From a virus: DNA of 35,963 nt. A program made the position numbers and the translations under genes. The DNA lies in the UHGV virus genome UHGV-0041739; one strand, 5' to 3'. The notes beneath the pieces were generated by a model. It saw only the letters and a list, made by a program, of their open reading frames with translations, was not told the origin of the DNA and ran no database searches. Of the stretch, positions 26,591 to 30,029 are shown one piece after another (position 1 is the first letter of the stretch; each line of letters opens with the position of its first letter).

Positions 26591-26601
26591 ATTGCTGTTA
26601 C

Positions 26602-27012
26602 TCAGAATAAATCGGGCTGATGTCGCCGTGAATGAAGTTTTCTCTGCCGGGCAATAATCTTGTAAATCTGCGGTTGTGACAGACGATGTTCACGCCGCAG
26701 CTCCTCTATGTTCCGACCGTTAAACTGGCAGTAAATCAGATCATCCCGCAACGCTGCCAGAAGTGCATCACCCCGGGGGATGTAATACTGCCGCCCCCCC
26801 AGGAACCATGATAAGGACATCACCTGTTTACGGGCTATGCTCCGTGCATCATCCACGCCCTGACGTTTCAGTTCTGTTTCCAGAACGTCAACCAGCTCAA
26901 CCAGCGCGCGGGGCCAGCGGGCCTCCTGCTCAGGAGCCGGTATATTGTCGATATGATCCATTAACTGGCTTACAGCCGGATCATGTTCAAATAAATCCTG
27001 CTGATTTGTCAT
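26602..27012 (-). CDS. C: Late-gene transcriptional activator C (Mor/C family)
   Basis: 136 aa, paralog of Mor with C-terminal HTH (QPQIYKIIARQRK); last gene of the middle operon, directly upstream of lys. Confidence 0.85.
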   Translation of the reverse strand: MTNQQDLFEHDPAVSQLMDHIDNIPAPEQEARWPRALVELVDVLETELKRQGVDDARSIARKQVMSLSWFLGGRQYYIPRGDALLAALRDDLIYCQFNGRNIEELRREHRLSQPQIYKIIARQRKLHSRRHQPDLF

Positions 27013-27525: not shown

Positions 27526-27736
27526 GATGCTTTTCCCTGTAACGCTGGCAGTGGTGAATAATTTCTGGCATATCGACTGACTGCCAGCCTTTCATGTAAT
27601 AGCTCCCGTGGGTGCCATCGTGCCCTGTGTAATCCATTGGCTTTGGTGGTGGACCTCCGGCCTCCCGATGCAACACCTCCTGTCGTAAACGTTCGCGTCT
27701 GCCAAACCGAAAGGACGCATCCCACCCTTTACCCAT
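27518..27736 (-). CDS. Small hypothetical protein (72 aa or shorter)
   Basis: ORF bridging the GH108 and holin-like genes; His/Arg-rich; start uncertain. Confidence 0.3.
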   Translation of the reverse strand: MGKGWDASFRFGRRERLRQEVLHREAGGPPPKPMDYTGHDGTHGSYYMKGWQSVDMPEIIHHCQRYREKHHV

Positions 27737-28289
27737 GCAGAACCTCCCGGCAGGCGCTGGCGAGCAGATCCAGACGGTTAAACCAGCCGTTCAGATATTT
27801 CCCCTGCGAGGCACTGGATTTGATAATCCCTGCGTAATAGCGGGAACGACGCAGGAAACACTGCAACAGCAGCCAGTCAGTATCGGCACGCAGTACGGCT
27901 GCGCGAGTGTTTTTGCCGACGATGCCATCATCATCAACACCTGCTGCCGCCTGGAGGATTTGAATTGCGCGTTTAACACCGTGCTGAACGGCAGCATCAA
28001 AGACGAATAAGGAAACACCATCAGGCCATTCGTTACACTTTGCCGCCAGCCAGTAATCACGCCAGTAGATTTGCGCCGCCTGCTCGTGGGTTAAATCTTT
28101 AATACGGGTATCAGGCTTCCCGTCACCGTTAACATCGGTTTTGCCATCAATAACGCCGTCGCGACGGTCAGAAATGCCGTATTTGGTTTCGCCGCCACGG
28201 TCAGTGGGATCATTAACGTAACCACCTTCAACATCAGGCCGTATAACAAAATTCAGCGAATGAAGGAATGCAGGGGAAAACTCAGGCAT
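27729..28289 (-). CDS. Peptidoglycan hydrolase-like protein, GH108 N-terminal domain plus PG_binding_3 C-terminal domain
   Basis: Motif VEGGYVNDPTDRGGETKYGIS matches the GH108 signature (EGGY.NDP.D.GG.T.YGI); C-terminal ...FVFDAAVQHGVKRAIQILQAAAGVDDDGIVGKNTRAAV resembles PG_binding_3. Likely start ATG at 28289 with AGGAGGG SD. Confidence 0.7.
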   Translation of the reverse strand: MPEFSPAFLHSLNFVIRPDVEGGYVNDPTDRGGETKYGISDRRDGVIDGKTDVNGDGKPDTRIKDLTHEQAAQIYWRDYWLAAKCNEWPDGVSLFVFDAAVQHGVKRAIQILQAAAGVDDDGIVGKNTRAAVLRADTDWLLLQCFLRRSRYYAGIIKSSASQGKYLNGWFNRLDLLASACREVLHG

Positions 28290-28336
28290 GTTGCCCTCCT
28301 GTAATGAACGTTTTATCGTCACAACAGAATATTGAG

Positions 28337-28371: not shown

Positions 28372-28761
28372 TTAAAACAGAGGGGGTTGATACTGACGAT
28401 ACTTTATACGCCGCATTCGTCGGATGGCTTTATAGACAGTGTTAAACGTCACACCATAACGAATTGCCAGTTCGTGAACATTGCGCCCGTTAAAATCATT
28501 CCAGATTCGTAAATCCCGAACCAGTGAATCCAGCACCTGCCCACGAGGAATATAGACCTGACCACCGCCAAGATGTTTACAGATAGCCACAACAATCTCC
28601 AGAGAGTGCGCAGGTTCAACGCCCAGCCGGGACAGTTCCTGACGCAGCACATCGTTCAGTTCCGCCAGCAGTGCCGGAAATCGTGACGTATCCCCGGATT
28701 CATTGTCAAGATGAGCCAGGATACTGTCATCCTGAAAGTCGCCAAACAAATCCTGCGTCAT
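28372..28761 (-). CDS. mor: Middle operon regulator Mor (transcriptional activator of Pm)
   Basis: 129 aa, MTQDLFGDFQDDSILAHLDN...RLGVEPAHSLEIVVAICKHLGGGQVYIPRG; Mor/C family; follows gemA as in Mu. Confidence 0.9.
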   Translation of the reverse strand: MTQDLFGDFQDDSILAHLDNESGDTSRFPALLAELNDVLRQELSRLGVEPAHSLEIVVAICKHLGGGQVYIPRGQVLDSLVRDLRIWNDFNGRNVHELAIRYGVTFNTVYKAIRRMRRIKYRQYQPPLF

Positions 28762-29324
28762 TGTGCCAGTCTCCGTGTTTTTCTTGCACGGGCATAAGCT
28801 GCTGTCATGGCATCATAGCCACGCAGTTCACGCCCGGACGGGCTGACCGGCAACGGGAGCCCATAATGGGAAAAGGCTTCACGGATACAGCGGATGTGCC
28901 ACTGTTTCAGGGTTTCAAGCACAATTTGTAACGATTCTCCGTGACACCACGCCAGCGTGGAAACACCCTGTCCGCCATTACGTCTGGCTGTCAGTCGTTC
29001 GACGTATTTATCCAGTGCTGTATCACTGCCATCGGCAATAAAACCGTCTTCTGCCATTTGCTGCCAGATTTTTAATACCTTTTCGTGGGGCGTTACATGC
29101 CCATTAAAGCGACGGCGTGGGTGTTTATTCTGCTTCTTAAAACCGCGTTCTTTCATGGCATCGAGCACCAGCTCCAGTTGCGCGACGGTCAGCTCACGGC
29201 AACTGATTTTGCCCGTGTTCTGCATCAGAAAGGCACGGTAGGTGTCGTCGTCGAGTTGTAGCTCCCGACGGGCGACATGGATTAATTTAATAAGCGATGT
29301 GCGATTCACTTGCTCACCTCTCAT
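28758..29324 (-). CDS. gemA: GemA-like host gene expression modulator (Mu gp16)
   Basis: Likely start at MRGEQVNRTSLIK (29324); the ORF-track extension to 29477 is probably not translated; overlaps the mor start. Confidence 0.75.
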   Translation of the reverse strand: MRGEQVNRTSLIKLIHVARRELQLDDDTYRAFLMQNTGKISCRELTVAQLELVLDAMKERGFKKQNKHPRRRFNGHVTPHEKVLKIWQQMAEDGFIADGSDTALDKYVERLTARRNGGQGVSTLAWCHGESLQIVLETLKQWHIRCIREAFSHYGLPLPVSPSGRELRGYDAMTAAYARARKTRRLAQ

Positions 29325-29339
29325 ATTAAGGAATGAGAT

Positions 29340-29756
29340 ATGAAAATTGATTATGACGAGATAGCCAGAATATTTGATGTATTCCTGGAGGCCGACACTG
29401 CATTCATTCGACTGGAAGATGTCGGCTGGGATCGTTCTCAGCGGCACAGCGACAGCCATCAGAAGCTGGTTTTCCATCTTCTGTTGCTGGTTGAAAATGG
29501 TTTTATCAGCAACAGATATCTGGAAACAGGCACCGCAAAAAGCATTGGTCTCACCCCGACAAGCCTCGGATATTCATATTCAGGCACCAGTGTCAGACTC
29601 ACACAAGATGGTCATGATTTTGCGAAAGCACTACATCAAAAACCCATTCTTGAGCGTATAAAACAGGAGCTTGCCGACGCCCCGATGACGCTCGTAACAG
29701 ACGTCGGCAAACAGTGGTTAACCTCGTTTCTTAAAAAGAAACTCGGGATTGAATAG
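29340..29756 (+). CDS. Plus-strand accessory ORF (138 aa), DUF2513-like winged-helix protein; candidate moron embedded antisense in the early operon
   Basis: AAGGAA SD 8 nt before ATG; start 15 bp from the gemA start (divergent); 3' end overlaps the neighbouring minus gene; ...TQDGHDFAKALHQKPILERIKQEL resembles the DUF2513 pattern (from memory). Confidence 0.55.
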   Translation: MKIDYDEIARIFDVFLEADTAFIRLEDVGWDRSQRHSDSHQKLVFHLLLLVENGFISNRYLETGTAKSIGLTPTSLGYSYSGTSVRLTQDGHDFAKALHQKPILERIKQELADAPMTLVTDVGKQWLTSFLKKKLGIE

Positions 29757-30029
29757 TTCCCGGTTCATACGTTGCAGCACATCAAGGGCGGCGACAGCCG
29801 CCACTTTATCGTTGCCATCAGCAATAGTGCGGAGATTTTCAATAATCCAGTGAGGACTCAGTGACTCAGCAACAATGCCCAGTCGGTACGCCATGACCTC
29901 ATCAATAGCCTGTTCGTAAGACGGGGCATATACAAAGGCCACAAAGTCGTTGACCTCGTTTTCCGGTAAACCACCGGCAATCAGCAGGGCTGTAAGTTCT
30001 TCTGATTTTGTAAATACGCCATTATTCAT
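29718..30029 (-). CDS. Early semi-essential region protein (hypothetical)
   Basis: Likely start MNNGVFTKSEEL; protein-like composition; in the early operon. Confidence 0.5.
   Translation of the reverse strand: MNNGVFTKSEELTALLIAGGLPENEVNDFVAFVYAPSYEQAIDEVMAYRLGIVAESLSPHWIIENLRTIADGNDKVAAVAALDVLQRMNRELFNPEFLFKKRG

Follow-up and report, generated by a model that had tools for sequence, protein, structure and literature searches.

A DUF2513-family winged-helix gene running against the early operon in a Mu-like Escherichia coli prophage: an accessory cassette with a possible function in the lysogen

The DNA stretch analysed here (the window) is the virus genome UHGV-0041739, 35,963 nt long, in which the early operon of a Mu-like phage is coded on the minus strand and one gene, at positions 29,340 to 29,756, runs against it. 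What this gene encodes, and why it lies backwards in a lytic operon, is the question raised by the locus. The preliminary description, made from the letters alone, had named it the sole convincing gene on the plus strand from about 24.9 kb to the window end, and the RefSeq CDS list of the corresponding locus in E. coli SE11 agrees. The window is 100% identical to the SE11 chromosome (AC No. NC_011415.1, at about 2.689 Mb). The Mu-like prophage of SE11 encodes transposase A, MuB, genes of the Kil region, Gam, gemA, and Mor, and further a GH108 protein, a C-like activator, lysis genes, and a terminase. The ORF is named there as WP_000687313.1, "DUF2513 domain-containing protein", and so the gene is already in public annotation and its family is known. 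Modestly new are the recurrent convergent unit that it forms with the neighbouring O108-family gene and the architectural parallel of this unit to gp14/gp15 of phage Mu. The only backwards gene of the prophage early region is now identified. Coordinates of the features are given in Table 1.

Table 1. Features at and around the plus-strand gene; positions are those of the window
Feature	Position	Strand	Remark
gemA (gp16 family)	28758..29309	-	start codon is the sharp left breakpoint of the variable cassette
Palindrome TCTCAT-N8-ATGAGA, short intergenic element	29314..29343		spans the ribosome-binding sites of gemA (-) and of the DUF2513 gene (+)
Shine-Dalgarno-like AAGGAA	29328..29333	+	6 nt 5' of ATG
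DUF2513-family (phrog_585) winged-helix CDS, 138 aa, divergent	29340..29756	+	ATG-to-TAG; WP_000687313.1
Tail-to-tail overlap DUF2513/O108, 39 nt	29718..29756		two CDSs
O108-family CDS (phrog_1988), 103 aa by PGAP	29718..30029	-	longest ORF to 30044
Hairpin GGCGGC-GACA-GCCGCC, then ACTTTATCG	core 29787-29802, extended 29784..29806	+	candidate intrinsic terminator

Spurious ORFs of 94–124 aa are listed on the plus strand nearby, so the length of an ORF alone is no proof of a gene here, and the analogous gp15 of Mu was removed from the revised Mu record. Both points would fit a chance antisense ORF or an annotation artefact, a reading which is effectively refuted by four kinds of evidence. The protein matches the profile phrog_585 with E 2.2e-31 (residues 1–137 on positions 1–127 of 128). 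Its full-length homologues (n = 29, 30–99% identity) extend over several bacterial orders down to 30% identity, and a library of 1.84 billion proteins holds 453 clusters of relatives at 50% identity, nearly all of them stand-alone, single-domain proteins of 125–150 aa. In the close relative L006, 7 of 417 nt of the gene differ, all seven at codon position 3, and the protein has a single E-to-D change. The AlphaFold2 model is confident, with mean pLDDT 92.3 and pTM 0.83. Positions 29,340–29,756 are a genuine protein-coding gene for a stand-alone protein of about 135 aa and, as was claimed at the outset, a real plus-strand gene embedded antisense in a Mu-like early operon.

The protein had been assigned to the DUF2513 winged-helix family, and this stands at superfamily level. 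Among the 27 aligned homologues, 25 match Pfam PF10711 at E below 0.1 (the best at 8.4e-7), a PF10711 label is precomputed for six relatives, and the predicted fold is that of a winged helix; the window protein alone, however, reaches 16.5 bits (E 0.011) and stays below the gathering cut-off of 29.6 bits. It belongs to a divergent DUF2513 subfamily, whose winged-helix core is MarR/PadR-like and is followed by three helices at the C-terminus. The motif DGHDF, named in the preliminary description as typical of DUF2513, occupies residues 90–94 and is indeed the most conserved motif of the family, with G91 invariant and H92, D93, and F94 each conserved at 90% or more in the family alignment. PF10711/phrog_585 proteins resemble the window protein in the winged-helix core of about 100 residues, in the pattern "...RLT..GHDF", and in being small stand-alone proteins of phages and bacteria. 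Compared with the PF10711 model, its subfamily conserves about 35 extra C-terminal residues, which correspond to the helices at 101–135.

Predicted helices of the core are at residues 5–17, 25–28 (short), and 38–52, followed by a three-strand wing at 71–87, and the C-terminal helices are at 89–99, 101–110, and 116–135. In fold comparison the model was recognized as a winged helix of the HTH clan, MarR/PadR-like, with topology H1-S1-H2-H3-wing, which is shared with the winged helices of MarR/PadR-type proteins, STIV F93, Sso10a, and TubR. Common to the MarR/PadR-type and archaeal-virus proteins and the window protein is also a helix 3 of the pattern "hxxLxxxGhI", followed by a wing ending in "v.LT..G"; the stretch KLVFHLLLLVENGFI ... 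VRLTQDGHDF we take to be the recognition-helix-plus-wing signature of MarR/PadR proteins. The likeness to these proteins is one of fold only, with 0 of 27 members matching Pfam MarR or PadR. C-terminal helices occur in the DUF2513 protein and in its winged-helix structural neighbours, and in neighbours of the MarR/PadR, STIV F93, Sso10a, and TubR type they mediate dimerisation. The modelled fold suggests a dimeric factor that binds nucleic acid or protein. Unlike MarR/PadR proteins, the DUF2513 protein is acidic, has in its helix-turn-helix a short helix 2 and, after it, the loop that varies most in the alignment, and has an unusually long wing. All subfamily members are mildly acidic (pI 4.8–6.7), and this, together with the short helix 2 and its variable loop, means that DNA binding is not assured. 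Nothing significant was found for the protein in a sequence-profile search of the PDB, no match at E below 1e-3 in a fold search of BFVD, and no matching model in NCBIfam. A function was not found in the literature on DUF2513, PF10711, the PHROG ids, or Mu gp15.

The place of the gene was compared with that in related phages. In mor and gemA the window is highly similar to Mu, SfMu, D108, and the Yersinia Mu-like phages; this homology ends at the start codon of gemA and picks up again within the next early gene or behind it. When a gp15-type E. coli prophage is compared, the identity is 95% in gemA, 37–51% across 29,310–29,717, 56–64% across 29,718–29,800, and 87–91% beyond. The slot adjoining gemA is a recombination-prone site of Mu-like phages. 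The alignment to Mu, D108, and SfMu, which had been suggested to see if the ORF is present in them, revealed that the DUF2513 gene is absent and that an unrelated gp15(+)/gp14(-) cassette lies there. In Mu (AC No. NC_000929) this is gp15 of 88 aa, coded on the same reversed strand and convergent with gp14; both genes are also present, together with a homologue of O108, in SfMu and several E. coli prophages. Like the DUF2513/O108 pair, the gp15/gp14 cassette of Mu, D108, and SfMu is situated immediately upstream of gemA with the gene next to gemA reversed, and in both systems that gene overlaps the 3' end of the preceding early-strand gene, by 62 nt in Mu gp15 and by 39 nt in the DUF2513 gene, the latter exactly the value first estimated as about 39 bp. 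Since a reversed gp15 occupies the exact slot in Mu, the backwards gene is a standing feature of Mu-like phages rather than a peculiarity of the window: reversed cargo has a fixed place in these phages just upstream of gemA, where Mu has gp15/gp14 and the window has DUF2513 with O108.

The parallel is one of architecture. Mu gp15 (Mup15, phrog_8747) differs from the DUF2513 protein in its length and in its restriction to Mu-like phages, and it has no sequence or profile similarity to it. Homology of the two proteins was considered and rejected (BLASTP E 0.24 over 11 residues, hhalign probability 0.4%, different PHROGs); likewise, no relation was found between O108 and Mu gp14. The reality of Mu gp15 is itself disputed because the revised Mu record (AC No. 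AF083977) drops it and has a forward ORF, Mu_54, instead. A codon-position comparison of gp15 with Mu_54 offered only five variable sites among the sequences compared.

The gene was first described as starting head-to-head with gemA at a distance of 15 bp. This distance holds only with a gemA start at ATG 29,324, whereas PGAP places the start at GTG 29,309, the place at which Mu also has its start codon and close relatives have ATG; with this start, the gap is 30 bp. The Shine-Dalgarno sequence attributed to the gene is present and unchanged in loci L006 and L012, and its spacing, given as 8 nt, was approximately right at 6 nt. The palindrome between the two genes could form RNA hairpins of modest stability (-8.5 and -11.6 kcal/mol, z -1.5 and -2.25).

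A winged-helix protein coded 15–30 bp from a divergent gene could be a local regulator of gemA-mor acting at a short shared control region. It would agree with such a role that about 38 nt around the palindrome (29,314–29,351) are 100% identical in L012, whose DUF2513 protein is only 62% identical, and that AF083977 annotates a promoter for gemA-mor in the equivalent intergenic region of Mu. The adjacency to gemA is not conserved, however, which weakens this explanation. In the Kluyvera type the gene comes after gemA and is head-to-head with a different ORF, and gemA is missing altogether from the baseplate-operon, prophage-end, and non-phage contexts. The intergenic region of the Salmonella/Citrobacter type is an unrelated sequence with a GC hairpin and no palindrome, and most Mu-like phages control gemA-mor without a DUF2513 gene. 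The 70-bp intergenic region of Mu also has a GC hairpin, which the window does not have. Local regulation of gemA-mor is accordingly very unlikely, and the head-to-head arrangement, noted in the preliminary description, is incidental: in the survey of pairs, the constant partner of the DUF2513 gene was the convergent O108-family gene at its other end.

The two genes were found tail-to-tail in 44 loci representing 27 distinct pairs, in an HMM-based survey of the loci fetched. The overlap of 39 nt recurs in several diverged lineages, and other pairs overlap by 30, 18, 15, or 0 nt or are separated by gaps of 2–3 nt and, in one case, of 23 nt. O108 is co-oriented with the resident operon in the phage loci with the pair. 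In the E. coli and Salmonella types the order is O108, reversed DUF2513 gene, gemA, mor; in Kluyvera it is gemA, O108, reversed DUF2513 gene, an ORF X, mor; and in Providencia-type phages a V-like gene and O94 precede the reversed DUF2513 gene, which is followed by a sheath initiator and baseplate J. At L061 the pair comes after two Arc-like ribbon-helix-helix genes. Linkage is frequent and not obligatory, as each gene is also found alone. O108 occurs without DUF2513 in SfMu-type phages, in Yersinia Mu-like phages, and in the baseplate loci L080 and L084, whereas DUF2513 has no O108 beside it in L013, L014, L017, L019, L022, L038-40, L058, L062, L064, L073, and L075. The predicted structure of O108 is all-helical (pLDDT 78, pTM 0.39) and has no significant structural neighbour.

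These pairs raise the possibility that DUF2513 and O108 constitute one two-gene system, in which the lysogen would make an effector (for exclusion, abortive defence, or a repressor-like function), and O108, expressed from the lytic operon, would be its antagonist or partner, aided by antisense transcription over the 3' overlap. The pair keeps its relative orientation and tight 3' ends in at least four contexts (before gemA, after gemA, in a non-Mu baseplate operon, and in one further), and in a reverse survey starting from O108 homologues a convergent DUF2513 gene was directly downstream in 3 of 5 sampled lineages. The divergences of the two proteins are also correlated (Mantel r 0.885, p about 5e-4), but this does not discriminate, because it is expected for any two genes sharing the same genomes. 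The occurrence of each gene alone counts against a single system, and so do the absence of a toxin-like or enzyme domain in either protein and the result with PADLOC-DB, in which no defence model matched the DUF2513 protein, O108, Mu gp15, or Mu gp14 (E up to 1). A two-gene system of this kind is a doubtful but real possibility. Members of phrog_585 and phrog_1988 recur as convergent partners in unrelated phage modules, which is a concrete and cheaply testable lead.

Every copy seen in Mu-like phages and in baseplate operons is opposite to the resident operon. That the gene faces the operon head-on in each of three independent insertion contexts is an argument that it is expressed separately from the lytic operon, in the lysogen, and that convergent transcription silences it after induction. 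The best explanation, with a probability of roughly 0.5, is that of an accessory winged-helix gene which is expressed in the lysogen and silenced by convergent lytic transcription; the identity of the gene in this explanation is near certain, and the mechanism is weak. The gene would have its own transcript, made without the early promoter Pe that the repressor controls and hence in the lysogen, and this transcript would end at the hairpin inside O108. Upon induction, transcription of the early operon through O108 would pass antisense across the DUF2513 gene and shut it off. The winged-helix product would dimerise, bind either nucleic acid or another protein, and provide the prophage with a lysogeny-phase function, e.g., regulation or the exclusion of other phages. 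A lysogenic-conversion, exclusion, or defence role, as suggested in the preliminary description, may apply, but no match in PADLOC-DB or NCBIfam supports it.

The hairpin that may end the transcript starts 31 nt past the stop codon of the DUF2513 gene and has a partly T-rich tail. It is stable (-16.9 kcal/mol, z -3.7, 0 of 200 shuffles) and is embedded in the O108 codons for DKVAAVAAL, which belong to the invariant motif DK-AAVAAL. Across Mu-like lineages with the DUF2513 gene its stability is -12.5 to -17.7 kcal/mol, and it is -8.3 kcal/mol in SfMu-type phages without the gene. The coincidence with a conserved O108 motif and the weaker form in SfMu-type phages mean that it may be incidental; it may be either the terminator of the DUF2513 gene or a by-product of alanine codons. 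A minus-strand "terminator" at 29,683–29,666 was also considered and rejected, as its stability does not exceed that of shuffled sequence (z 0.39). No RNA family of Rfam was recognized in the whole window.

A consensus scan of the window found no sigma-70-like promoter on the plus strand upstream of the gene, and scans upstream of it in four lineages, among them the window, L020, and L055, gave no more matches than chance would. This counts against an independent transcript of the gene in the lysogen. Dependence on an activator would fit the result, and the gene could then be a lytic-cycle gene, for host takeover or anti-defence, that is switched on after induction from a phage-activated or unrecognised promoter and whose reversed orientation has no link to lysogeny. 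Distant lambdoid-type homologues are co-oriented with early lytic genes, and in two phages the DUF2513 gene follows Arc-like ribbon-helix-helix genes. In phage immunity regions, a gene behind such genes is typical of tightly repressed lytic functions, e.g., antirepressors. A lytic role is nevertheless unlikely, with all Mu-like and baseplate-operon copies reversed and so placed head-on to a strong lytic operon, which is costly, with no convincing LexA box near the start of the gene in any lineage (the best, 17 of 22 positions, is 238 nt upstream in one locus), and with no match of the protein to known anti-defence families in the libraries searched. An SOS-controlled prophage antirepressor of the Tum or Gifsy type is not supported, given the missing LexA box.

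If the pair proves to serve the lysogen and to have a built-in lytic off-switch, a role would be found for several hundred uncharacterised phage proteins, and this would help to settle the reality of Mu gp15; if not, the DUF2513 gene is one more hypothetical accessory gene. An extended form of this explanation, speculative and unlikely, would see O108/DUF2513 as a self-contained mobile "lysogeny-ON / lysis-OFF" system. The resting prophage would make a winged-helix effector for exclusion of or defence against other phages, or to control transcription of the host or of a phage; on induction this would be turned off by head-on transcription across the 3' overlap and neutralised by the co-transcribed O108, and gp14/gp15 of Mu, though unrelated, would be its analogue, alike in architecture and site.

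The gene had also been proposed as a candidate moron, and the comparison with phage morons in the sense of Hendrix and colleagues, e.g., gp15 of HK97 and bor and lom of lambda, supports this in part. Like morons, it is an extra gene present in only some of a set of close phages, inserted between conserved genes of an operon, with a hairpin past its stop codon, and its family is found at cargo sites such as prophage ends and tail operons. Unlike morons, it has no detected promoter of its own, and its base composition is not atypical: G+C is 0.45–0.49 across the gene and 0.44–0.56 in the flanks, with no step. Two classic moron traits are thus not in evidence. It also differs from single-gene morons in that it often moves as a convergent two-gene unit.

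The view of the gene as optional cargo was borne out. It is carried by 5 of 5426 complete E. coli genomes, none of the isolated Mu-like phages in the phage collection has it, and related prophages have a different cassette in its place. Reversed homologues with 36–64% identity are present in Mu-like early operons of E. coli, Salmonella, Citrobacter, Pantoea, and Kluyvera, and those of E. coli, Salmonella, and Citrobacter prophages, 46–64% identical, occupy the same slot as in the window. Other copies, with no O108 beside them, are at a prophage end next to smpB, in lambdoid early-left regions, and in non-phage islands. Some non-Mu phages have the gene on the strand of the adjoining genes, which counts against the favoured explanation. 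The DUF2513 gene is an optional, horizontally mobile accessory cassette. A search for a conserved partner in the non-phage contexts gave no common neighbours. The copies in Alcanivorax and Hydrogenovibrio have no neighbour genes in common and are 92% identical.

The start of gemA in the window is ambiguous, with two candidates on the minus strand at positions 29309 and 29324, and the head-to-head gap between gemA and the DUF2513 gene is 30 bp or 15 bp, respectively. PGAP chose the GTG at 29309, with GAGGTG just before it; in Mu, gemA also starts at this position, and in close relatives the codon here is ATG. The in-frame ATG at 29324 is without a Shine-Dalgarno sequence. The first ~60 nt of the gemA coding sequence (29240-29300) are near-invariant DNA, including synonymous sites, in Mu, SfMu, Yersinia phages, and the window, and no promoter-like motif for the reversed DUF2513 gene was readable within this segment.

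In the Salmonella/Citrobacter type, the stretch separating gemA from the reversed gene holds a GC hairpin. On the early strand, a T7 tract comes directly after this hairpin and immediately before the gemA ribosome-binding site, which gives the hairpin the look of a terminator or attenuator. It recurs in Mu, where its tail is weaker, and is wholly absent from the window. The two Mu records are in conflict over the gene at this slot, as NC_000929 has gp15 and AF083977 has Mu_54 on the opposite strand. A codon-position test of gp15 versus Mu_54 among Mu, SfMu, YpM5, and one E. coli prophage had only five variable sites, too few to favour either ORF.

Coordinates of features around gemA and in the comparison loci
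Feature	Location	Strand	Remark
gp15, 88 aa	NC_000929 7896-8162 (L003 2557-2823)	reverse	Mu record
Mu_54, 55 aa	AF083977 7960-8127 (L004)	forward	other Mu record
Promoter for gemA-mor	AF083977 8151-8217		annotated in the record with Mu_54
GC hairpin GGCGGTG...CACCGCC	L008 5952-5971; L003 2508-2527		Salmonella prophage; Mu
ORF, 139 aa, acidic C-terminus	L011 4967-5386	reverse	second reverse-strand ORF, between gemA and mor, Salmonella Mu-like prophage
Gene with PF03526 match (microcin/colicin immunity)	L077-L079 1841-2191	reverse	Providencia prophages
DUF2513-subfamily copies	L017, L019 4001-4432		Alcanivorax, Hydrogenovibrio
IS1 copy	L054 5504-6201		IMG/VR prophage

In the interval 29718-29800, the last ~12 codons of O108, the convergent minus-strand partner of the DUF2513 gene, are antisense to the DUF2513 C-terminus. 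SfMu-type phages (L001 and L007), which are without the DUF2513 gene, retain 56-64% DNA identity there as well as a '..PEF..' peptide, and this likeness may tentatively be a relic of a DUF2513 gene displaced by the gp15/gp14 cassette.

According to the second reverse-strand ORF in L011, the surroundings of gemA evidently tolerate multiple backwards inserts. The middle region of the window prophage is a mosaic relative to Mu: unlike Mu, it has on the minus strand a GH108/PG_binding-type gene right after mor (27729-28322) and, beyond it, a second Mor/C-family gene (26600-27012).

The PF03526 gene of the Providencia prophages lies just upstream of a V-like gene, in the same baseplate operon as the pair of DUF2513 and O94, the counterpart of O108 there. 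The Alcanivorax and Hydrogenovibrio DUF2513 proteins are 92% identical, and their genes have part of the 5' leader but no neighbouring genes in common, which suggests a recent single-gene transfer. In one IMG/VR prophage, an IS1 copy with InsA/InsB-like ORFs is present in place of O108, directly after the DUF2513 gene.
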